Source: a virus (taxonomy: Duplodnaviria > Caudoviricetes). Taken from it: a stretch of DNA of 26,212 nt. Location of the stretch: positions 1 to 26,212 of the IMG/VR virus record IMGVR_UViG_3300020042_006736; one strand, 5' to 3'. How positions within the stretch are numbered: position 1 is the stretch's first letter; each line of letters starts with the position of its first letter. The position numbers and the translations under genes were made by a program. Shown piece by piece: positions 657-26,212 of this stretch. The notes beneath the pieces were generated by a model. The model was given only the letters and a program-made list of their open reading frames with translations. It had not been told where the DNA came from and ran no database searches.

Positions 657-698
657 ATGAAAAAAAGCATTGACTATTTTCTAAATATCGTGCAAATT
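657..698 (+). promoter_or_regulatory. Putative sigma70-type promoter for the ligase insert
   Basis: A-tract, then TTGACT (670-675), 17 nt, then a weak -10 CAAATT (693-698), 9 nt before ATG 708. Confidence 0.5.
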
Positions 699-707
699 TC
701 CCTTGCG

Positions 708-1394
708 ATGAAACCGATGCTTGCCAAAACATACGAACGCTATCACGAGATTACCGGATGGATGATGTCTGAAAAACTGGACGGCGTGAGAGCAATATGG
801 GACGGCTCAAAGCTCATCAGCCGCAACGGGAATGTATTTCATGCGCCGGAATCGTTTCTTGCCACGCTCCCGGCAGGCGTAGTTCTCGATGGCGAGCTTT
901 GGATGGGACGTGGCATGTTTCAACGGACAGTCGGCGTTGTCCGTTCGCATGACGGCGATTGGACGGGCATTAAATATCTCGTGTTCGACGCTCCCGAAGT
1001 TCCCGGCGATTTTGTCACCCGCTTGGCGTTTGCCGCAACCGTGGCCGAGATCGTGCCGCATGTCGTCTGCACAGGCACTAGGCATTTGAATGAACACCTT
1101 GCTGAGCTTGTGGCGCAAGGCGCCGAAGGCGTGATGTTACGCAATCCGGCAAGCAGCTACGAACACAAGCGTTCTGCCAATCTTCTAAAGTTCAAGACAT
1201 GCAGCACCGCCGAAGCTGTCGTGATCGGCCACAAGGCAAACTCATTGCTAGTGTCGTGGAGTAAGAAAGTCTTTGCTCTTGCTGGCAGTCTTGAAACCGC
1301 AATAGGCGCTAAACTGACATTTTCCTATCAAGGTTTAACCGATGGCGGCATTCCAAGATTTCCGATATTTGTTGCTGTAAGAAATTATGAATAA
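708..1394 (+). CDS. Minimal ATP-dependent DNA ligase
   Basis: Motifs PMLA, SEKLDGVRA (KxDGxR), LDGELW, YLVFD, EGVMLR, LLKFK and terminal PRFP. Start 708 (MKPMLAK) is preferred over 657 because the intervening DNA looks like a promoter. Confidence 0.92.
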   Translation: MKPMLAKTYERYHEITGWMMSEKLDGVRAIWDGSKLISRNGNVFHAPESFLATLPAGVVLDGELWMGRGMFQRTVGVVRSHDGDWTGIKYLVFDAPEVPGDFVTRLAFAATVAEIVPHVVCTGTRHLNEHLAELVAQGAEGVMLRNPASSYEHKRSANLLKFKTCSTAEAVVIGHKANSLLVSWSKKVFALAGSLETAIGAKLTFSYQGLTDGGIPRFPIFVAVRNYE

Positions 1395-1476
1395 CGCTAG
1401 GGATCTGGCACCGCCGCCCTAGATGCCGACTTCAAGAGGGACGTTCCGGCGGTTGCCAGCATCCCATTGTTCTCAC
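1389..1476. mobile_element. attC-like recombination hairpin, site 1
   Basis: AAC(1393)-N6-GAT-CTGGCA-CCGCCG...CGGCGG-[T]-TGCCAG-[C]-ATC-N5-GTT(1469). Two extrahelical bases 6 bp apart. Overlaps the ligase stop codon (TAAC). Confidence 0.75.
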
Positions 1477-1506
1477 TCTTCCGAATCACCAAACAACACC
1501 GAACCA

Positions 1507-1752
1507 ATGGAAACACTCTACCTAATCTATCATCCGCAATACCGCACGAACGGACTCTGGAAGCCCGCCGACCACATCAGCCAAGAAATCGCCTTGCGGC
1601 ATTTCAGCGGTGGCAACGTGGCTATCTCATACAACCGACTGGATGAAATAATCTACGTCGCAGGACTCCACGGCTGGAAAGTCACCACTGAGGGTGATCC
1701 AAAATTTCCCGGTGAGAACAAAACTGCACAGGAACGCGATAGCGTTTCCTGA
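1507..1752 (+). CDS. Hypothetical protein (81 aa) in a cassette-like unit between two attC-like sites
   Basis: ATG 1507 follows an A/C-rich leader (CACCAAACAACACCGAACCA). The stop codon lies inside attC-like site 2. The longer 1423 start runs through hairpin 1 and is unlikely. Confidence 0.65.
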   Translation: METLYLIYHPQYRTNGLWKPADHISQEIALRHFSGGNVAISYNRLDEIIYVAGLHGWKVTTEGDPKFPGENKTAQERDSVS

Positions 1753-1767
1753 TGCGAACTGTTAGAA
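1712..1767. mobile_element. attC-like recombination hairpin, site 2
   Basis: AAC(1717)-N6-GCA-CAGGAA-CGC-gata-GCG-[T]-TTCCTG-[A]-TGC-N5-GTT(1761). Same geometry as site 1 and near-identical to site 3 at 25627. Confidence 0.8.
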
Positions 1768-5633: not shown

Positions 5634-7919
5634 ATGAAAAATGAAAAACTAAGTTTGTGCGTTATCGTGGGCAATGTGGAGAACTACATTGCCCGTTTCA
5701 TTGAATCATTCAAGCCACTGGCTGATGAGATTGTGATTGTTCGGGCTATTGGAAAACAAGAGCCTGACAGGACGGTGAAGATTGCGCAATCGCTAGGATG
5801 CGTCATTGCGGAAGAATATCAAAACTCTGATAGGGAGATTTACATTGATTTTGACCCAGCGGTTCACGATCCAAAATACTTTTCACCCGATCCTAGCGGC
5901 AAACGATACAAAACAATTGATCCTTGGCAATGGCCGCACGTTGACGACTTCGCAGCGGCACGGCAGCAAGCATTCAACGCGGCATCGCATGACTTGATTA
6001 TGTGGGCCGATACCGACGATGTTATTGATCCTGAGTCAATCAAGCGCATTCGTGAAACGATTGATTTACTACCAGAGGATTTTGACGGCATACAATTTGC
6101 TTACCATGTCCCGGAAGATCAATTGACTGTCAACCGTGAAAGGATCATCCGCAAAGGTCGCGCAGTATGGGTATCGCCAATCCATGAGTATTTGCAATTC
6201 GACAAGGAACCAAAACTGGCAACCGTCAACGGCGCGGTAATTTTGCACAGACCAGAAGGAACTAGGGAGCGCAACGACGAACGGAATCTCCGCATTCTTG
6301 AAAGCATTGAACACCCCACGGTATCGCAGAGATTCCACATGTTTCAATCGCTTCGGGCGGTTGGCCGAATCCACGAAGCGGCAACCGTCGTTTGTGAACT
6401 GCTAAAAAGCAATGACGAGAACATCGGCACGGCAGAGAAATACGAGCTTTTCATTGCCGCCGGACAAATGGCCGACAACGTGGATATTCGTTTGCAAATG
6501 AACCTACAAGCGTTGTCCGTCGATCCATCGCGCAAGGAGGCATACGGCGAGCTTTGCTTGTGCTATATCGGCCTCGGACGCGACAAGGAGGCACTAGCCA
6601 TCACAACGGCAATGATGGCGCAGGACGGCGGTTCTAGCGCGTGGAACGTCCGCAGGAAATACGCCGGATATCTTGGCCATCAACTGCACGGCATGGCATT
6701 ACGAGCTAACGGATTTCACGACCAGGCTGACGCGGTGGAAACTAACCATTTTATCCGCAGCGGGGCGAAAATCTCACTTATTCATGCCACACGGGGACGA
6801 TGCAGGCAAGCAGTTGAAGCGCGGCGTTTGTGGTTTAACAAAGCCAAGAATCCAGACGCAATTGAGCATATTTTCGGACTGGATATTGACGATCAACACG
6901 CGTCATTTTTATCAGTTCACAATCACGTTGTCACAAATGGGAAAGGAGGATGCGTAGCAGCATGGAACCTAGCGGCCATGAAATCACAAGGAGAAGTTTT
7001 AGTGCAACTTTCCGACGATTGGAATCCGCCTATGCATTGGGATGAAATCATTCTGAACGCTATCGGCGACACAAGCAAACCAGCAGTCCTAGCAATCAGC
7101 GATGGACACCGCACTGACGATTTGCTTTGCATGGCGATTCTCACACGCAAAAGATATCAGGATCAAGGTTACATGTTTTACCCTGAGTTTTTCAGCGTGT
7201 TTTCCGACAACTACTTTACGCACATGGCATATAAAGACGGCGTTGTTGTACAAGCTAGGGATATTGTTTTTGAACACTTGCATCCGGCATTTGGCAAAGC
7301 TGAAATGGACGCAACTTATGCCAGGTCAAACGACTCAAAACACTACAAAGACGGGGAAAGAATTTACCGATTGTTGCTAGAAGGCGTTTCCGATACCGGA
7401 GTATTTTGCTCTGAACTACACGAAGGACAGTTCGATTCTCCGCACCTTGCCGAATGGTTGAAAAACAACTTGGACAAAACCATTCCAATTTACGATCTCG
7501 GATGTGGGAATGGCTTTATCGTCAATGAATTAAACAAAGAAGGTTTTTGGGCTACTGGATTTGAAGGTGATCCAGTTGACAAATCACACATTAAGCACGA
7601 TCTAACAACGCCGCTCAACGTAGAACCAGCGCAAGTCGTTTGTATCGAGGTTGGCGAGCATGTGCCAGCACAACATGAATCTACTTTGATTGATAACCTC
7701 GCAAAAGCAACGGCTAAAGGGTCATTGTGCGTTATTTCGTGGGCGGTTCCCGGGCAACCTGGCAGGGGACATGTAAACTGTTTGCCTCCGTCTGAAGTTA
7801 TCGCAAAAATGACAAACGCGGGATTCAATTATGAAAAAGACTTGACGCAAGATGCTAAAAAATCCGTTAGCGATTTGCCGTGGCTTCCAAACACTTTGCT
7901 AGTTTTCCGTAAAGAATAA
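5634..7919 (+). CDS. Multidomain protein: GT2 glycosyltransferase, TPR, second GT-A domain, SAM methyltransferase
   Basis: LSLCVIV.N.E, DDFAAARQ, WADTDD and IHEY (GT2). TPR-like helices (QALSVDPSRKEAYGEL). ISLIHATRGR...QLSDD...FSDN (second GT-A). YDLGCGNG...IEVGEHV...GHVN (class I methyltransferase). Confidence 0.85.
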   Translation: MKNEKLSLCVIVGNVENYIARFIESFKPLADEIVIVRAIGKQEPDRTVKIAQSLGCVIAEEYQNSDREIYIDFDPAVHDPKYFSPDPSGKRYKTIDPWQWPHVDDFAAARQQAFNAASHDLIMWADTDDVIDPESIKRIRETIDLLPEDFDGIQFAYHVPEDQLTVNRERIIRKGRAVWVSPIHEYLQFDKEPKLATVNGAVILHRPEGTRERNDERNLRILESIEHPTVSQRFHMFQSLRAVGRIHEAATVVCELLKSNDENIGTAEKYELFIAAGQMADNVDIRLQMNLQALSVDPSRKEAYGELCLCYIGLGRDKEALAITTAMMAQDGGSSAWNVRRKYAGYLGHQLHGMALRANGFHDQADAVETNHFIRSGAKISLIHATRGRCRQAVEARRLWFNKAKNPDAIEHIFGLDIDDQHASFLSVHNHVVTNGKGGCVAAWNLAAMKSQGEVLVQLSDDWNPPMHWDEIILNAIGDTSKPAVLAISDGHRTDDLLCMAILTRKRYQDQGYMFYPEFFSVFSDNYFTHMAYKDGVVVQARDIVFEHLHPAFGKAEMDATYARSNDSKHYKDGERIYRLLLEGVSDTGVFCSELHEGQFDSPHLAEWLKNNLDKTIPIYDLGCGNGFIVNELNKEGFWATGFEGDPVDKSHIKHDLTTPLNVEPAQVVCIEVGEHVPAQHESTLIDNLAKATAKGSLCVISWAVPGQPGRGHVNCLPPSEVIAKMTNAGFNYEKDLTQDAKKSVSDLPWLPNTLLVFRKE

Positions 7920-7937
7920 CAACTACTGGAAACGGAA

Positions 7938-8114
7938 ATGAGCGCAGGAAAAGGAGACACACCGCGACCAGTTGATCACGCAAAATACAGAAACAACTAC
8001 GACCTAATCTTTAGAAAAAATGAACATGAAACTAAGCATTCTAACTCCGACGATTCCAAGCAGAAACAAGCAACTCGCGAAGCTGTCAGAAAAGATAGCA
8101 AAGCAGATCGGTGA
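7938..8114 (+). CDS. Small phage protein with GKG-x-x-PRP motif (58 aa; absent from the ORF track)
   Basis: Hand-translated as MSAGKGDTPRPVDHAKYRNNYDLIFRK... It fills the gap between the two GT genes and its tail overlaps the next gene. Confidence 0.55.
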   Translation: MSAGKGDTPRPVDHAKYRNNYDLIFRKNEHETKHSNSDDSKQKQATREAVRKDSKADR

Positions 8115-8595
8115 TTTGCCAGTGGAACATCTGGTTTTTTCTGACAACCGGACGCGAACAATCGGCGCAAAACGGCAGGCATTGCTAGACATTGCACGTG
8201 GCGATTACATTGCTTTTGTTGACGACGACGACGACATTGAGCCGGATTACGTCGCATCCATCCTCGACGCTATACGCTCGGAGGCTGATGTAATCACGTT
8301 TGAACAAAACAGCTATTACAACGGAGCGTTTTCCAAGGTGGTTTTCGGACTGAACAATCAGGATCACCCGTTCCAGCCTAACGCCATCACCCTCCGCGCA
8401 CCGTGGCACGTTTGTGTCTGGAAACGAGAACTTGTCAAATCATGCCAATTTGGGGAATGCAATTACGGAGAAGACATCATTTGGGCGCGGCAGGCACGGA
8501 AGAAAATCCGATCTGGATTCCACATTGACAAGGTGCTTTGCACGTATCGCCATGACGCAGAATTGACAGCAGCACCGGAACCTGTTAGAGTATAG
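8020..8595 (+). CDS. Glycosyltransferase family 2 (GT-A)
   Basis: LSILTPT, IGAKRQALL..ARGDYIAFVDDDD and YGEDIIW motifs. Confidence 0.9.
   Translation: MNMKLSILTPTIPSRNKQLAKLSEKIAKQIGDLPVEHLVFSDNRTRTIGAKRQALLDIARGDYIAFVDDDDDIEPDYVASILDAIRSEADVITFEQNSYYNGAFSKVVFGLNNQDHPFQPNAITLRAPWHVCVWKRELVKSCQFGECNYGEDIIWARQARKKIRSGFHIDKVLCTYRHDAELTAAPEPVRV
8563..8591 (+). promoter_or_regulatory. Putative promoter for neck and tail genes
   Basis: TTGACA(8563)-17 nt-TAGAGT(8586). CTGTTAGAGT is identical to the 4165-4174 segment. ATG at 8598. Confidence 0.7.
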
Positions 8596-18617: not shown

Positions 18618-18940
18618 TGTTTGACAATGATCCCACATTTATCAGCAAACTTTATTACTACGCCACCGCGCTCACCCTTGGCGCGATTGCTTCCTTGTCT
18701 GCATTGCTGGGCGCACCGGACAAACAGATCACGATTCGCGGGGCATTTGCTTACGTCCTTACTGGTGGTCTTGCCTCCCTCATGCTGGTTCTTCTGCTTG
18801 TCGAAAAATATGGAGCTTCTGAATTGCTCATCGGCGTTTCAATTCTCGGAGGCTACCAGGCATTCAACATCTTTTTCGTGCTAGGCACTACCCTTATCAG
18901 CAAAGCAAAAGACATACTCAAACCAGTTGGCAAGCAATGA
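18614..18940 (+). CDS. Putative holin (about 3 transmembrane segments)
   Basis: MMFDND start overlapping the previous stop, three hydrophobic segments, basic C-terminus, located in the lysis region. Confidence 0.65.
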   Translation: MMFDNDPTFISKLYYYATALTLGAIASLSALLGAPDKQITIRGAFAYVLTGGLASLMLVLLLVEKYGASELLIGVSILGGYQAFNIFFVLGTTLISKAKDILKPVGKQ

Positions 18941-19530
18941 CTCTCTCCTCTAAAATCGAAACATTTCTAAACTCCGCGCATGTGGAAACAGAACGCGAAA
19001 CTCAACGTCGCATTTCCAGTTTCCGAACGTTCGTTAGCAAATGGCTATCGCTCATTCTATCGGTGGTTGCAGGTGGTTCAGTCATTTACGGGTTCGTCAA
19101 AACGCAGGATTTGAAAAGCTACAACGCTGCGTTGGAACTGTCTTTGAGCAACGCAAGGATTGGATTATGGACTCTCGACGTTCGCAGCAATGTCGTCACA
19201 TGGGATGAAACCATGTTCAAAATTTACAAGTCGCAACCAACTGAAAACGGCGTGGTGGATTACAACTTCTTCGATAAATTCGTAGTCGATGAAGACAGGG
19301 ATCGCGTGAAATCGGAAGTCTATGCTGCCATCCACGACAAAAAGCCGTTCATAACTTATTTCCTCATAAAAGACGGAACTGGAAAACAACAACTCATCCG
19401 CGCATCCGGTGTCATGCTCAACGATAACACGATGCAAGGAATAAACATTTTGACCAAAGCTCATTGGGACGATGAAGTCACCCGCGATGAGTTGGAGCAA
19501 CTCTTGCAAAAACTGCGTGAACCGCTATAA
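18937..19530 (+). CDS. Membrane-anchored PAS-domain protein with no output domain
   Basis: One TM segment (WLSLILSVVAGGSVIYGFV), then LELSLSNARIGLWTLD...WDETMFKIY...VVDEDRDRV...DG...IRASG, matching the PAS/PAC pattern of sensor kinases. Confidence 0.75.
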   Translation: MTLSSKIETFLNSAHVETERETQRRISSFRTFVSKWLSLILSVVAGGSVIYGFVKTQDLKSYNAALELSLSNARIGLWTLDVRSNVVTWDETMFKIYKSQPTENGVVDYNFFDKFVVDEDRDRVKSEVYAAIHDKKPFITYFLIKDGTGKQQLIRASGVMLNDNTMQGINILTKAHWDDEVTRDELEQLLQKLREPL

Positions 19531-20841: not shown

Positions 20842-21851
20842 CAAAAAAAGAAATTGCAATGGATCTAATGGATCGGATGCCGGACTTGTCTAACCACATG
20901 ACGGCGAAGAAACTGCACAAGGACTATCCCGCGGTGTTCCCGTCACAAGATGCGGCTCGCGCGCTGGTTCGCGCCATACGTGGATCAATGGCAAACGTAG
21001 GAACAAAAAAACATGTCGGTAAAGGAGTGTCCGCTGTGCCTAGATTCATCCGTGAAACACCTTGGCAAAGTCTCATGCCGAAATCTACGGCAGAGATTAC
21101 TGAACCTGTTGTCATTTCCGGCAAACGCAAGGTGCTGATCCTGTCCGATATCCACTTCCCATTCCACGACGAGGCCGCGCTAATGACGGCACTTGAACAC
21201 GGATACAAGCAAGAATGTGACACGGTTATCCTTAACGGCGACACCATCGAAAACTACGGCGTTTCGAGATGGGAGCCTGATCCACGTCGGAGAAACCTAC
21301 AACACGAACTGCAAACGTGCCGCGAAGGAATTGCGATGATTCGTTCTGCATTTCCAAAAGCGGATATGTATTTCAAGTTCGGCAATCACGATGACCGACT
21401 GGAGCAATATCTGAAAAAAAATGCTCCGTTGCTGCTTGACGTTCCCGAATGCACCTTGGAGTCATTGCTGAAACTGGATGAGCTTAAAATCAAAGTTGTT
21501 AGATCAAAGCAAGTAATCAAATCAGGAAATCTGCTAGTCCTGCACGGCCACGAATTGCCGAAAGGACTTGCCAATCCGGTATGCGCTGCCAAGCGGTTAT
21601 ATGACAGACTCAGGACAACCAGCATTTGCGGCCACTTCCATCAGCACAGCAACTACACGGACGCAATCGGGATCATCAGCGCGGGCAACAAGAAAGTCAC
21701 AAGCTGCTGGACTACGGGGTGTCTTTGTGACATGTCTCCGGAGTATGCAATCACAAACAACTGGGTGCATGGATTCGCAATTCAAGACATGCAAGCAAAC
21801 GGTGATTTCACGCTTTACAACATGATGATTATCAACGGTAAAGTGCATTGA
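20838..21851 (+). CDS. Calcineurin-like metallophosphoesterase with N-terminal helical extension
   Basis: SDIHFP, LNGD, GNHD, HGHE and GHFH motifs. Confidence 0.9.
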   Translation: MTKKEIAMDLMDRMPDLSNHMTAKKLHKDYPAVFPSQDAARALVRAIRGSMANVGTKKHVGKGVSAVPRFIRETPWQSLMPKSTAEITEPVVISGKRKVLILSDIHFPFHDEAALMTALEHGYKQECDTVILNGDTIENYGVSRWEPDPRRRNLQHELQTCREGIAMIRSAFPKADMYFKFGNHDDRLEQYLKKNAPLLLDVPECTLESLLKLDELKIKVVRSKQVIKSGNLLVLHGHELPKGLANPVCAAKRLYDRLRTTSICGHFHQHSNYTDAIGIISAGNKKVTSCWTTGCLCDMSPEYAITNNWVHGFAIQDMQANGDFTLYNMMIINGKVH

Positions 21852-22013
21852 TTTACCGTGGTTTACTATCACCGATAAGTCGGCAAAAAAGACGATTTAC
21901 CGGCGTTTTGTGCGGTTTTTCGTCATTCTTGGCGAGTTGATTTTATTTCTCTAGTTGCTGTCATGCTTGTTCACTTGTCATCTTCCTACAAACAGATTCG
22001 ACAACCGAAAGAC

Positions 22014-22049
22014 AAAGTTCTTTACTGTTTTCTTTTTTTCGTTTAGTGT
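22014..22049 (+). promoter_or_regulatory. Putative promoter for the HNH gene
   Basis: AAAGTTC, then TTTACT(22021)-17 nt T-rich-TAGTGT(22044). Shares AAAGTTCTT with the promoter at 22946. Confidence 0.4.
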
Positions 22050-22055
22050 AATTGC

Positions 22056-22179
22056 GCATTAGTAATGCCAACTCGCAGATACCGAGATGAAACAATACAA
22101 AACAAATACGCCGTCGTGCGATTGCTTGCCACTTTTTGAGTGGGTATCTCTTGCAATCCATGACGGCGAACCTGTTTTT
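22056..22179 (+). ncRNA. Structured cis-regulatory leader, copy A (predicted loop-bulge pseudoknot)
   Basis: Two small hairpins, an A-rich linker, and a long hairpin at 22109-22168. Loop AGATAC (22077) is complementary to bulge GTATCT (22144). Confidence 0.6.
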
Positions 22180-22182
22180 ATT

Positions 22183-22911
22183 ATGCAAAACGATGAGTTA
22201 AGCAGTAAGGAAAAAAACAAATTGCACGCTAAAGCATATCAGCAATCAGTTGAATATAAAGAGTATGCGAAGAACTACAGAAACAAACCAGAATCTATAT
22301 TAGCAAGAAAAGCATACCGACTAACAGAAAAAGCAAAAGCAGCAGAAAAAGCGCGTAGAAATCTGGATAGTGTAAAAAATTACATTAGATTAAACAACCG
22401 TAAGCCAGAAACAATAAAGGCGAAAAAAGAATACGCGCAATCAGCAGAGGGAAAGGAATACTTTAAGAATTATCACAAAAGGCCAGAAGTTGTTGCAAAA
22501 AGGCAATCGCAAGAACGTAAAGATTGTCTAAAAAAATGGCAGCAGTCAGAAAAAGGCAGATTAATGCGCAAGGTGTGGCTGGAATCTTACAAGAAAACAA
22601 AAAAGTATAGAGCCAGTGTATCAGCTCAAGCGTCAAGACGACGGGCTATAAAAAAGCGCGCGCCACTTGCAGACGCAAAAGTGATTGCTGCTTGGTTTAA
22701 AAAATGGAAAACGCTTGATGTTGTTTTTTGTCACTGGTGTCATGGTCAATTCAAAGTAAAGGAATGCGAGGCGGATCATGTAATGCCTATTTCAAAGGGG
22801 GGAGCACATTCAATTGACAATCTTGTGATTTCTTGCGTGTCATGTAATCGCAGAAAAGCAGCAAAAACGCCAAGCGAATGGGTTGCTGAATTGCGCTTGC
22901 AACCCATATAG
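22183..22911 (+). CDS. HNH endonuclease with long basic helical N-terminus
   Basis: CHWC...DHVMPISKGGAHSIDNLVISCVSCNRRK motif. Start 22183 preferred because 22087-22182 is a structured leader. Confidence 0.9.
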   Translation: MQNDELSSKEKNKLHAKAYQQSVEYKEYAKNYRNKPESILARKAYRLTEKAKAAEKARRNLDSVKNYIRLNNRKPETIKAKKEYAQSAEGKEYFKNYHKRPEVVAKRQSQERKDCLKKWQQSEKGRLMRKVWLESYKKTKKYRASVSAQASRRRAIKKRAPLADAKVIAAWFKKWKTLDVVFCHWCHGQFKVKECEADHVMPISKGGAHSIDNLVISCVSCNRRKAAKTPSEWVAELRLQPI

Positions 22912-22931
22912 ACATTAGCATTTTGAAAATA

Positions 22932-22974
22932 CTTGAAAAAAGTTCTTGCGTTTTTTCATCTTTGGGGCTACTTT
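22932..22974 (+). promoter_or_regulatory. Putative early promoter
   Basis: A-tract UP-like element, TTGCGT(22946)-17 nt-TACTTT(22969), then an A/C-rich leader to ATG 22998. Confidence 0.55.
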
Positions 22975-22997
22975 TGCGCCGTCAACCAACTACAACT

Positions 22998-23114
22998 ATG
23001 AAAACAACTTACGGAACACCAATCGACAAAATCATCTCAGAATATGACGGCATCGCACTTTGCCAAGTTGGATGTGAGCTTGTCCATATTCACACATCGA
23101 ACATCATTCGATAA
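22998..23114 (+). CDS. Hypothetical protein (38 aa)
   Basis: MKTTYG... after the leader CAACCAACTACAACT. Confidence 0.45.
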   Translation: MKTTYGTPIDKIISEYDGIALCQVGCELVHIHTSNIIR

Positions 23115-23121
23115 TCACACA

Positions 23122-23298
23122 ATGAACCAAACCAAACAACGCGGCGGCAAACGCATCGGAGCCGGTAGAAAGCCTGGCGTGAAAAAAGCGCGGAATAAGA
23201 TCGCTCGGTCAATCACGTTGCATCGTGACACTTGGCAGATGATCGAACGCAAGCGCAAGGAACTTTCGCCTTCTAAATTCATCGAATCAAAACTATGA
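23122..23298 (+). CDS. Small DNA-binding protein (RGG.R.GAGRK hook plus ribbon-helix-helix-like part)
   Basis: QRGGKRIGAGRKP followed by ARSITLHRDTWQMI...SPSKFIE. Confidence 0.7.
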   Translation: MNQTKQRGGKRIGAGRKPGVKKARNKIARSITLHRDTWQMIERKRKELSPSKFIESKL

Positions 23299-23447
23299 AA
23301 ACACTGAACGAAAAATACGCATTGGCCATGCCTAAAATCGGCCACACTAACCGGAAGCGTTACACACGCTTGAAAACCATCGCATCACGCATCATTGTCA
23401 CACTGGCAATCGGCGCGGCAACCTATTACCTGTCGCGTTATGTGTAA
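23295..23447 (+). CDS. Hypothetical 50-aa protein with C-terminal hydrophobic segment
   Basis: Hand-translated as MKTLNEKY...IIVTLAIGAATYYLSRYV. ATGA overlap. Confidence 0.5.
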   Translation: MKTLNEKYALAMPKIGHTNRKRYTRLKTIASRIIVTLAIGAATYYLSRYV

Positions 23448-23643
23448 ACTCGATGATGATTACATTGCCGAAGTCCGAAGCGACAGGGACGACGACTATC
23501 GAGAAATCGTCCGAAACTACATCCGCTGCAAAGACGGCTTGTGCGGGGCTGACGACTGCCCGACATGCAGGCCGGGAAACTTTACGGACGGAGTTTGGAA
23601 TGAAGACATCGAAGACGAACAAATAACAATCGAAGATGATTAA
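23440..23643 (+). CDS. Small acidic Cys-cluster protein
   Basis: CKDGLCGADDCPTC putative metal site. ATG at 23440. Confidence 0.55.
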   Translation: MCKLDDDYIAEVRSDRDDDYREIVRNYIRCKDGLCGADDCPTCRPGNFTDGVWNEDIEDEQITIEDD

Positions 23644-23803
23644 TATAACTGATCACAACAAAGCCATTCAAGATTACAGCACTGACACGCTGGTAAAAAT
23701 CCTCCGCGACTTACAGCGCAAACAGCAACATGACCGCTGGGACATTAACAGAATTACGGCCATCAAATCTTTACTCAAGAAAAGGGGGATCGTATTGTCA
23801 TGA
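23636..23803 (+). CDS. Hypothetical protein (55 aa)
   Basis: Hand-translated as MINITDHNKAIQDYSTD... Overlaps both neighbours. Confidence 0.5.
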   Translation: MINITDHNKAIQDYSTDTLVKILRDLQRKQQHDRWDINRITAIKSLLKKRGIVLS

Positions 23804-24096
23804 CTCCAGAACACTCTCCCTGCCGTGTGGCAGACCGGGAAACAGGCCCGCTGTCGTTGTCAACTGTTCAGGCGGCGGCGGCAGCGGGAAACCCGGTAAC
23901 ACTGTTTCTCTACATTGCTCAGGACGCGCAACACCTAGAGCCTTACAAGATCACGCTTGAATCAGAGCTTATTATTGCCGCAGCTGACGAAATCATCCAG
24001 TTGCGTGACAAGTTGACTAACGCAAAGCAGGAAATTACACAGACGATCAGAAAACTTGAACAAATATACGCACAAATCGAAATAAAAACATTATGA
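23800..24096 (+). CDS. Hypothetical protein with C-terminal coiled coil
   Basis: ATGA overlaps on both sides. AADEIIQLRDKL helix. Confidence 0.55.
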   Translation: MTPEHSPCRVADRETGPLSLSTVQAAAAAGNPVTLFLYIAQDAQHLEPYKITLESELIIAAADEIIQLRDKLTNAKQEITQTIRKLEQIYAQIEIKTL

Positions 24097-24482
24097 GCAA
24101 CCAACTACACAAACTGAAAATCAATCTACGGAAAATCCCGGCAGCTATCATCAAAACACGCGCCGAAGATGGCCGTAAATATCTCATCATCGACATTGCA
24201 AAAAGCGGCATGTTCGACAATGACAACGCGACATACCTTGACATCGACATGCGGGAAAACCGCGACGGCGAGGATCAATACGGAAATACGCATATGCTGG
24301 TCATGTCGCCGACGAAGGAACAGCGCGAAGCAAAAGAGAAAACGCCTATTGTCGGTAATGCCAAGACTTACGTTTTTCCTGATCGGAACATGCCGCAATC
24401 ATCGCCTAAACAGCGCGACGGACGACCTCACACAGATATTGTCATTCCTAACGATGATGACAACGATTTGATTCCGTTCTGA
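24093..24482 (+). CDS. Putative single-stranded DNA-binding protein
   Basis: Acidic tail DDDNDLIPF, DQYGNTH and PIVGNAK segments, located in the recombination block. Confidence 0.65.
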   Translation: MSNQLHKLKINLRKIPAAIIKTRAEDGRKYLIIDIAKSGMFDNDNATYLDIDMRENRDGEDQYGNTHMLVMSPTKEQREAKEKTPIVGNAKTYVFPDRNMPQSSPKQRDGRPHTDIVIPNDDDNDLIPF

Positions 24483-24502
24483 CCCACCAAACAACAAACA
24501 CT

Positions 24503-24913
24503 ATGAGCGAACAAGAATTTACTGGCAAGGTAAGCCAGATGAAAAAGGACAACAAGTTCCTAGCAAGTGAAGACTTTATCGGACTTGGCGAAATCGAATT
24601 AATTATCAGCGGAATTTACGCGCATGACAACGAAGTAATGCAGGACGGCAAAAAGAAATCATTTTTCAGCGTTGGATTTAACGACAAGCCAAAGCGGATG
24701 GTGCTTAACGCCACCAACCGCAAGACGCTGGCTATGGCATACGGCGCAGATACTAAGAACTGGATCGGCAAGGCTGTAATCTTATACGCCAAGGACGGAA
24801 TCAGGAATCCAGCAGGCGGCGACACGGTTTATGGATTGCGGCTAAAAGTTAAGCAGACCGCAAAAAGCACAATCAAGCCATTCGCAACAGAACAGGAAGG
24901 AGCAGAGCAATGA
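24503..24913 (+). CDS. Conserved phage protein, possible ssDNA-binding or annealing partner of YqaJ
   Basis: KRMVLNATNRKTL...YG.....WIGK.V.LY pattern, translationally coupled to the exonuclease. Confidence 0.5.
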   Translation: MSEQEFTGKVSQMKKDNKFLASEDFIGLGEIELIISGIYAHDNEVMQDGKKKSFFSVGFNDKPKRMVLNATNRKTLAMAYGADTKNWIGKAVILYAKDGIRNPAGGDTVYGLRLKVKQTAKSTIKPFATEQEGAEQ

Positions 24914-25662
24914 TTATTATCGACACACCGCAAGGCTCAATCGACTGGATCACGGCGAGGCTATGGCGTTTGACTGGATCAGCGTTGAAAGCGAATATCA
25001 CGGCGACAGGCGCGTTGTCGAAGTCACAAGCGGCCATTGCTGCAATCGACAAGATCATCGCCGGACTCGACGCGGCAAACGAGATTCGCACGAATCCCGA
25101 CGCGATTGCCGGACTTGACGACTACGAGGTTCAAGAATGGCTTAGTCATTACACAGGCGAGAAATTCAGCGGCAACAAACACACGCGCCGCGGAAATGAT
25201 CTGGAGCCGGATGCGCTAGCAGCATTGCAAGAAAAGATCGGGATGCAAATCGACCCAGTGGGCATGTGCATCATGGGTGACGATCCAAACGGGGTGGTTT
25301 CCTGCTCGCCAGATGGATTGATTTACAATGACGGGATACTAACGGCAGGCGCGGAAGTTAAATGCCCGACGTTGGCAACGTATTACGGCTATCTGGCCGA
25401 CGGTGGACTGCCGGATGAATACAAGCTGCAAGTTCATGCTTCAATGGTAATCTGCGAGGTTGACGAATGGCATTTTGCCGCGTATTTTCACAGAAAGCCG
25501 CTATTTCACCATCTGGTGAAAATGGATGGTTTTACTGAAAAGCTTGGCGACTCATTGCAAGACTTCCGCCAAATGTATGAAGAACGGTTTTGGAAGATTT
25601 CCAGCGTTATGAAGGAACTTAAACAGAACAGCCAAGCACAGGAAGGCGAAAGCCTTTCCTGA
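24910..25662 (+). CDS. YqaJ / lambda-exonuclease-family recombination nuclease
   Basis: QGSIDW..AR...LTGS, RGNDLEP, SCSPDGL, EVKCP and Y.LQV motifs. Confidence 0.9.
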   Translation: MIIIDTPQGSIDWITARLWRLTGSALKANITATGALSKSQAAIAAIDKIIAGLDAANEIRTNPDAIAGLDDYEVQEWLSHYTGEKFSGNKHTRRGNDLEPDALAALQEKIGMQIDPVGMCIMGDDPNGVVSCSPDGLIYNDGILTAGAEVKCPTLATYYGYLADGGLPDEYKLQVHASMVICEVDEWHFAAYFHRKPLFHHLVKMDGFTEKLGDSLQDFRQMYEERFWKISSVMKELKQNSQAQEGESLS

Positions 25663-25677
25663 TGCGACCTGTTCAAA
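25623..25677. mobile_element. attC-like recombination hairpin, site 3 (solitary)
   Basis: AAC(25627)-N6-GCA-CAGGAA-GGC-gaaa-GCC-[T]-TTCCTG-[A]-TGC-N5-GTT(25671). Compensatory change relative to site 2. Confidence 0.78.
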
Positions 25678-25681
25678 CTTT

Positions 25682-26077
25682 ATGACAATCATTCTTCCAG
25701 TCAAACTAACAAACGGCAACACCGGACGCGGAAACGCGTGGTATATGTCGGCGGCATTTCGAGACAAAGTAGAAAAGAAACTGCGCAAACTAGGACTAGC
25801 AAGATCACCGTTTACAATGCCGGTAACGGTTACGGTAACGCGCATTTTAGGCAAGGGCGACCGGCTATGGGATTCGTCTTCAATCTTGCGCGGTAATTAC
25901 AAAGAATTGGAGGATAGTTTAGTTGCAATCGGCTGGTTTGTTGACGATTCTACAAAGCACATTGCATGGACTAACGGACGGCAAGACGACACCCGGCGCG
26001 ACAAAGGGCCATCCGTGGAACTTGAGATTTTACCTTATTTTGCAGACGATAGCAAACTTGACAATCAACCGGAATGA
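25682..26077 (+). CDS. RusA-like Holliday junction resolvase
   Basis: R.WD.....K.LED.LV..G...DDS acidic-residue pattern. Confidence 0.65.
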   Translation: MTIILPVKLTNGNTGRGNAWYMSAAFRDKVEKKLRKLGLARSPFTMPVTVTVTRILGKGDRLWDSSSILRGNYKELEDSLVAIGWFVDDSTKHIAWTNGRQDDTRRDKGPSVELEILPYFADDSKLDNQPE

Positions 26078-26085
26078 TGCAACAT
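26058..26085 (+). promoter_or_regulatory. Putative promoter for the next transcription unit
   Basis: TTGACA(26058)-16 nt-CAACAT(26080), directly ahead of structured leader copy B. Confidence 0.5.
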
Positions 26086-26091
26086 TGGCGC

Positions 26092-26212
26092 GTCGAAAGA
26101 CATATCACACGACCAACGTGATAACAAAATCAAACAGCTTACCCGCCATTAGGCGCAGTTCTATTTGCTCTCAGGAGCATGTAGTTGGTCACTGCGAATG
26201 ATGGCGGGCTTT
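26092..26212 (+). ncRNA. Structured cis-regulatory leader, copy B (predicted loop-bulge pseudoknot)
   Basis: Two small hairpins, an A-rich linker, and a long hairpin at 26142-26208. Loop GACCAA(C) at 26111 is complementary to bulge (G)TTGGTC at 26184-26190. Confidence 0.6.

Follow-up and report, generated by a model that had tools for sequence, protein, structure and literature searches.

A short inverted attC-type hairpin as the probable fixed end of a gene-cassette slot between yqaJ and a rusA-like gene in phages

How does a phage gene come to end inside a hairpin built like an integron attC site, and do gene cassettes enter there? The locus that raises this question lies in a 26,212-nt stretch of DNA, hereafter the window, which is the entire record of a virus of the class Caudoviricetes (IMGVR_UViG_3300020042_006736; completeness about 33%). 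All recognised genes of the window are carried by the plus strand, in the order terminase end, ATP-dependent ligase, lambda-type portal, Clp protease, capsid, glycosyltransferases, amidase, HNH and early region, and the early region ends with a YqaJ exonuclease gene followed by a RusA-like gene. A first-pass annotation, made from the sequence alone, had noticed an attC-like site fused to the end of yqaJ and proposed that it is an empty docking site or a cassette scar. Its assignment of the YqaJ neighbour is sound, and the ESM Atlas repeated it and gave nothing further; the RusA-like identity of the other neighbour is weak. No DNA match to 24900-26080 was found among 50,697 annotated phages. 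The features of the locus are as follows.

24910..25662, plus strand: YqaJ-family exonuclease gene (PF09588, E 4.5e-13).
25623..25677, minus strand (canonical top strand): site 3, a short attC-type site of 55 bp including both 7-nt R boxes, from sequence, fold and geometry scan.
25623..25629, plus strand: R' box, ACAGAAC on the gene strand; its AAC is read as an Asn of YqaJ, and the crossover lies at 25628/25629 (AA/C).
25636..25665, plus strand: L-box stem and short terminal stem-loop, from sequence, fold and the geometry given in PMC5027507.
25671..25677, plus strand: R'' box, GTTCAAA on the gene strand, from sequence.
25682..26077, plus strand: resident RusA-like resolvase gene (phrog_34, E 2.5e-5, weak; no Pfam match).

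According to PMC5027507, an attC site folds on its bottom strand into a hairpin: R' contains AAC, the spacers measure 5-6 nt, and two bases six pairs apart stay unpaired, one at position 16, usually a G, and a T at 23/24. Site 3 has a paired R box with AAC/GTT, a paired L box and, at the described six-pair distance, the unpaired bases A 25662 (position 16) and T 25655 (position 23); the geometry is canonical on the minus strand only, where the spacers measure 5 and 6 nt. The R boxes pair with a probability of 0.99, and the DNA hairpin has z-scores of -4.2 (plus strand) and -4.9 (minus strand); site 2 likewise folds into a hairpin. A both-strand geometry scan of the window returned three sites, 1393-1471 (site 1), 1717-1763 (site 2) and 25627-25673 (site 3), against 1 match in 10 simulated windows, with a scanner that was devised after the sites had been seen and that degenerate sites escape. 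The top strand is the minus strand in all three, so their genes lie on the bottom strand, opposite to ordinary cassettes.

Sites 2 and 3 form the top family returned by a repeat finder (79% identity over 56 nt, spacing 23,910), and their core has two exact occurrences in the window, 1726-1756 and 25636-25666, with none in 100 shuffles. Between site 2 and site 3 the inner stem changes from CGC/GCG to GGC/GCC, the loop from GATA to GAAA and the left spacer from AAAACT to AGCCAA, together with one base of the right spacer, and the distance from AAC to GTT is 47 nt in both. The earlier description of a near-copy with a compensatory stem change, another left spacer and equal lengths was accurate letter for letter, as was its statement that the upstream ORFs end (NKTAQERDSVS and NSQAQEGESLS, respectively) at the same TGA within the site. 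At site 3 this stop codon, 25660-25662, closes yqaJ, and its final base is the unpaired A 25662; a G there, the usual attC base, would turn TGA into TGG. yqaJ has no stop of its own past the crossover, and the residues after Asn and the stop are supplied by site 3. The next start codon lies 8 nt past the GTT of the R'' box. Our analysis confirmed that site 3 is a near-copy with attC geometry and adds a point absent from the earlier description, namely that the site is inverted, the gene strand being the bottom strand.

Site 3 also departs from the consensus. Its R boxes (TTTGAAC and GTTCTGT on the top strand) do not fit RYYYAAC / GTTRRRY, which most of the long attC sites of these phages do not fit either; the first unpaired base is A instead of the usual G; and its 55 bp, like the 52-56 bp of its family, compare with a published attC lower limit of 56-57 (range 57-141), for which counting conventions may differ. 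Site 3 is placed in the attC class by its geometry and crossover and not by its boxes, and it would be recombined by IntI as a folded single strand.

Site 3 belongs to a family of short sites. A pattern of the inner core matched 42 viral loci, 13 of which have AAC six bases before and GTT five bases after it, neither being required by the pattern; the other 29 were set aside. A looser viral scan, which covered 120 of about 130 stretches and in which 40 loci have short flanks, gave at least 121 matches, 29 of them with AAC, and a metagenome scan gave 53 loci in 41 contexts. Three pattern matches without a hairpin (L074, L187 and L192) were dropped from the counts. The family totals 63 contexts and 49 distinct sequences, all in phage-like DNA, with lengths, both boxes included, of 52 bp (11), 54 bp (15), 55 bp (32) and 56 bp (5). 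Among 185,579 species genomes there were 26 matches, 25 of which do not fold and are taken as chance, and the one true member (L198) lies on a phage-like contig; no bacterial integron thus vouches for the family. The search for the motif in viral and host genomes that the first-pass annotation had proposed was therefore productive in viral and metagenomic DNA and nearly empty in species genomes.

The annotation had also argued that the structure is under selection, and the family bears this out. In an alignment of 15 members, 98.2% of cells are paired and two-sided changes occur in 4 of the 15 pairs, exceeding all 500 shuffles, a statistic that is inflated by relatedness and by the search pattern, which fixes the L-box columns and makes them uninformative. 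Both unpaired bases are kept across the aligned short sites. The short sites precede 19 downstream ORF clusters in 57 contexts, each cluster with a different gene leader, and several downstream genes, the rusA-like gene included, also occur without a site; judged by this distribution, the short site itself is apparently mobile. Its right-hand junctions resemble microhomology joins or may be remnants of a lost cassette body. In one pair (L131:2492 compared with L227) the short site sits inside the first codons of a resident gene, with the upstream ORF fused to it in frame, and upstream of the rusA-like start in L291 it is missing most of its left arm, TGA and right box being kept. Two loci (L208 and L046) hold a sister class with the same spacers, an L box GAT/ATC in place of GCA/TGC and the unpaired C of the window's long site 1, which suggests that short sites may derive from long ones by loop loss.

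The evidence that bears most directly on the question comes from relatives of the locus. Thirteen distinct close yqaJ ends are alike through AAC 25627-25629 and diverge from the next base; one further end (L053) was left out, as it stops before the junction. Five of the 13 run straight into the short site (the window, L045, L030, L251 and L214) and are empty, whereas eight run into seven other elements and are filled. The insert of L044 (671 bp) consists of a 114-bp attC and a Mom-family ORF (PF25680, E 1.7e-22), with end boxes GTTCTTC / GAAGAAC that match 7/7; that of L236 (717 bp) has an 81-bp hairpin and an N6/N4 methylase, with boxes GTTCGGG / CCCGAAC matching 7/7 by eye. End boxes match 6/7 in the inserts of L043/L046 (280 bp) and of L047 (256 bp, hairpin eroded) and 7/7 in that of L039 (442 bp, hairpin eroded); the insert of L042 (1,147 bp) starts with a 96-bp hairpin, and that of L222 (373 bp) has unmatched end boxes. 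The distant yqaJ of L198 has a native end and no site.

In every filled allele the new hairpin abuts yqaJ and the short site remains with the downstream DNA, which fixes the crossover at 25628/25629. The allele boundaries thus place it between A and C of the bottom-strand R' AAC, as attC recombination requires, and the conventional polarity, with a crossover at the right-hand G/TT, is ruled out by the short site remaining with the downstream gene. Inspection of relatives for ORFs inserted after yqaJ, which the annotation had suggested, accordingly found filled and empty alleles at exactly this junction, in agreement with an empty docking site. The alleles further support a refined version of that reading, in which the site is inverted, the crossover AA/C lies at its left edge and the site is kept with the downstream DNA. 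Contigs from two related samples terminate just left of the crossover, at 25626, in one related-sample contig the interval from 25644 to 25682 contains 230 other letters, and the summed depth in one read run was 235 over the site 3 bin compared with 74 and 89 on its flanks; these contigs and reads represent relatives and not the window genome, the best run containing 0.11 of its words.

Are the inserts cassettes? Another strict attC lies within 1.5 kb upstream of the short site in 17 of 63 contexts (62.9 kb scanned) and downstream in only 2 (73.0 kb), namely L131, a short-long-short array, and L256; in gene direction, then, no further site follows the short one in most contexts. At the four variable box positions, the nearest upstream attC and the short site are fully complementary in 13 of the 17 pairs, whereas shuffled partners gave a mean of 0.88 and a maximum of 6, none of 20,000 reaching 13, and the two boxes within one short site are fully complementary in 1 of 62. 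The contexts come from related phages and are not independent. These complementary end boxes indicate that the inserts are true cassettes and, together with the excess of upstream over downstream attC sites, that the short site is a fixed docking site at the end of the array. ORFs of at least 60 codons that end at the site lie on the gene (bottom) strand in 43 of 49 contexts and on the canonical top strand in 12, which differs from the ordinary cassette arrangement, where the ORF precedes its own attC on the top strand.

Two other ways of drawing the cassette were rejected. The rusA-like gene is not a cassette of its own, as no co-varying partner box lies near its stop in 12 loci (the best AAC box matches 4-6 of 7 positions, scattered) and copies without a site occur in L198, L231 and L255. 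A self-contained mini-cassette consisting of the attC alone was dropped, since AAC follows soon after GTT in some members and not in others.

The region around the rusA-like gene is itself variable. In L039, L030 and L042 only the first 11 codons of the rusA-like gene are left 3' of the short site, and a RuvC-type resolvase comes next; in L039 (1402-2744) and L030 an HNH-like ORF afterwards ends in RusA C-terminal residues, one resolvase having been replaced by another within the gene. Most relatives have a gene of about 735 aa and a small gene 3' of the rusA-like gene, which are absent from the window (26040-26212); the tail of the window RusA, KLDNQPE, resembles the end of the small gene in L046, which points to a deletion, and the end of the window contig is a partial inverted repeat. 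Elsewhere in the window, two glycosyltransferase genes lie directly 3' of the capsid gene (5634-8595), one of them fused to TPR and methyltransferase domains, and a 197-aa protein among the lysis-region genes (18937-19530) has a sub-threshold PAS_3 match.

The other two sites of the window provide a complete cassette of the same polarity at the junction between the terminase and head genes.

1389..1475, minus strand: site 1, a long attC of 87 bp, with an R' box that overlaps the ligase stop TAA.
1395..1718, minus strand: complete inverted cassette of 324 bp (site 1 body and ORF), with end boxes GTTCTCA / TGAGAAC complementary 7/7.
1507..1752, plus strand: 81-aa cassette ORF of no known family, its stop borrowed from site 2.
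1713..1767, minus strand: site 2, a short attC-type site of the same family as site 3, the last site of a small array before the head genes.

The 81-aa ORF has no relative among viral contigs. In the 10 closest relatives, whose portal is 98-100% identical, the stretch between terminase and head genes is without a site in nine and has a short site alone in one; the window has ligase, cassette and site 2 at the same junction. A CALIN, that is at least two attC sites within a few kb and no integrase, is present at sites 1 and 2 and in filled alleles such as L044; site 3 is single, with 539 nt of contig behind it. A 24-kb circle formed from sites 2 and 3 was rejected, because their boxes differ beyond AAC/GTT and there is no sign of a join; against it, too, L260 alone among 30 loci around the portal gene has a site, and terminase lies upstream of it.

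The terminase-to-head junction (window 657-1767; L258-L273) is an insertion hot spot, with a 50-nt gap in 9 of the 10 closest relatives compared with 1,158 nt in the window. The window ligase is preceded by a promoter-like leader, the short site of L260 by the apparent last bases of a ligase gene, and L268/L269/L271 have a different 672-nt insert. In the allele without a site, the sequence TAACTGTTAG already forms a pair of directly adjoining R-like boxes.

The frame crosses the crossover in most of the family. In 24 of 28 viral contexts and 28 of 33 from metagenomes, no upstream frame stays open longer than the one that reads AAC as Asn, and the stop lies within the short site in 31 of 41 metagenome contexts. 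The earlier statement that the site supplies the stop codon to incoming genes holds for most members and not for all: as deduced from the lengths, sites of the 52- and 55-bp classes (43 of 63) put the L-box TGA in frame, whereas those of the 54-bp class (15) do not, and their ORFs continue past it. A stop taken from the site is thus common and not required. The upstream ORFs fall into 38 clusters among 47 contexts. Among the 43 that have at least 60 codons, five encode DNA-modifying enzymes (Mom, Dam, two C5 methylases and one N6/N4 methylase), which are the only recognisable cargo of the slots; the rest comprise four YqaJ, one sub-threshold match and 33 ORFs without a match.

We consider it likely that a cassette slot lies between yqaJ and the rusA-like gene and that its fixed end is site 3, a very short, inverted hairpin of the integron attC type. 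Inserts seen in relatives enter the slot at AA/C, presumably by attC x attC recombination that a host integron integrase carries out. This reading starts from what was observed directly, namely the geometry, the polarity, the crossover point, the empty and filled alleles, the matched cassette ends and the frame. As the gene strand is the bottom strand, each cassette would consist, in gene direction, of its own hairpin, then an ORF, then AA. An incoming cassette would enter between yqaJ and site 3; from the cassette hairpin yqaJ would gain a new, short C-terminal tail together with a stop, and the cassette ORF would pass the Asn codon into site 3 and end at the TGA that the unpaired A completes. 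Cassettes would come and go ahead of site 3, which would itself not be excisable by the same reaction, because no further attC lies behind it in gene direction. The cargo would probably be expressed from the phage early operon and need neither a promoter nor a stop codon of its own.

The enzyme would have to come from elsewhere. No integron integrase was found in nine related virus records, and no tyrosine recombinase in the window's record, itself 33% complete, or in five relatives, three of them at least 90% complete; the intI gene that marks a complete integron was thus not found beside the array. The phage-like contig of L198 was binned in a MAG in which a partial intI-like sequence scored under the cut-off of the family, evidence too weak to name a host, and a tblastn search with that fragment gave no match near any site except a weak one in L113, whose long ORFs look unrelated. 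The long phage sites may resemble Verrucomicrobia attC sites. IntI is described as carrying out attC x attC insertion (PMC5027507), IntI1 recombined five of the six phage attC sites tested in PMC9892861, and short terminal loops are reported to favour recombination from double-stranded DNA (PMC5027507, PMC5371416). We infer recombination by a host integron integrase; the identity of enzyme and host and a single-stranded or cruciform substrate are presumptive to the same degree.

Several features count against the slot: the R boxes depart from GTTRRRY, the unpaired base is A, the length is at or under the limit, the hairpins of L047 and L039 are eroded, the boxes of L222 do not match and four of the 17 pairs are imperfect. 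Some of these would suit a dead scar, the leftover of past cassette traffic, kept for its stop codon and as the leader of the next gene, whose alleles would be spread by homologous recombination of the YqaJ/RecT type and not by a present-day integrase. Hairpins are indeed eroded in L046, L047, L039 and L291, the phage encodes a YqaJ exonuclease, no integrase was found in the phage records searched, and where short sites adjoin resident genes on the right, the junctions resemble joins at microhomology. We nevertheless regard such a scar as unlikely: inner-stem pairs are kept by two-sided changes, both unpaired bases are kept, the R boxes of site 3 pair with a probability of 0.99, seven different inserts have one exact left boundary in common and cassette ends are still perfectly matched in 13 of 17 pairs.

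Another recombinase, a host Xer-type or an unrecognised phage enzyme, might cut at the same AAC. The spacers, the unpaired bases 16 and 23 and their 6-bp spacing are, however, those described for IntI substrates, and the same junction takes in long attC sites of ordinary size, which makes this improbable to us even though the family is met only in phage-like DNA, no integrase lies nearby, the boxes and length are atypical and XerC/D, too, are described as recombining single-stranded substrates (PMC5027507). Least credible is a role in RNA alone, as a terminator or as a hairpin that couples the translation of early genes, with a chance resemblance to attC. On the sense strand site 3 does form a stable RNA hairpin (-25.9 kcal/mol, z -5.4) that ends 8 nt before the start codon, and covariation cannot tell RNA from DNA. 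Yet Rfam gave no match at E <= 1 across the window, and site 3 is not among the eight terminator-like sites (G+C stem followed by a U tract) of 21800-26212. The first-pass annotation would have been contradicted by a plain terminator that is never associated with variable gene content, and neither the result of the terminator scan nor the 38 upstream ORF clusters fit that description. As a sole explanation an RNA element leaves inserts at one base and complementary boxes hundreds of bases apart unexplained and is contradicted by the allele series; a role as RNA in addition to that as DNA may exist.

The cassette slot can be set against known systems. Phage attC sites are already in print (Qi et al. 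2023, PMC9892861), where clusters of at least two were reported in 21 of 10,705 phages. Those arrays resemble the present sites in having attC sites without a phage integrase, DNA methyltransferase cargo and a presumed use of host IntI. The main text of that study describes bacterial-like arrays and divergent sites in one phage, with no genes antisense to attC, no site-borne stop, no empty and filled alleles and no dedicated terminal site, and its supplementary annotations may show inverted genes; site 3, single and 23.9 kb from the nearest site, would fail its two-site, 3-kb rule. Integron attC sites as described in PMC5027507 and PMC5371416, such as attCaadA7, have in common with the short sites the AAC triplet, R and L boxes that pair, spacers of 5 and 6 nt, the unpaired bases 16 and 23 at a distance of six pairs, a very short terminal loop and the A/C crossover. 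Unlike the sites in those descriptions, the short sites measure 52-56 bp, have an unpaired A that completes TGA and off-consensus R boxes, carry genes on the bottom strand and act as acceptor at the array end. In attI1/ORF-11 of class 1 integrons, too, as given in PMC8876359, the frame crosses the crossover and the stop is taken from the landing element; attI1 is, however, double-stranded, lies beside intI and has the ORF-11 leader peptide, whereas site 3 is a hairpin with a full-length resident phage gene and reversed polarity. A literature search, thin on subscription journals, found no paper on inverted phage cassettes or a minimal terminal site. What is new at site 3 is the short anchor family and the series of empty and filled alleles at a resident gene, neither of which was found in the literature searched.

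Our findings describe a phage lineage, with no integrase found in the records searched, that swaps gene cassettes amid its replication and recombination operon, as seen at one base-pair junction. As a substrate for a standard integrase assay, site 3 is short and exactly delimited, and both its recombining strand and its crossover are predicted. Since two-site rules as given in PMC4889954 and PMC9892861 set single sites aside, the use of integron chemistry by phages may be undercounted. The half-made cassettes seen here, yqaJ with a 3' box only and the rusA-like gene with a 5' hairpin only, bear on the origin of gene-attC joining. A bolder reading, which we put forward tentatively, is that these phages may have evolved their own substitute for attI: a portable minimal hairpin, planted before resident operon genes and folding easily from double-stranded DNA. 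It would recruit the integron integrase of the host, which would supply the early operon with cassettes, those for anti-restriction among them. The unpaired base gripped by the integrase would have been turned into a stop codon, and a resident gene that gained a front hairpin and an end AAC box would become a new cassette. If this were true, such phages may be a workshop where cassettes are made.
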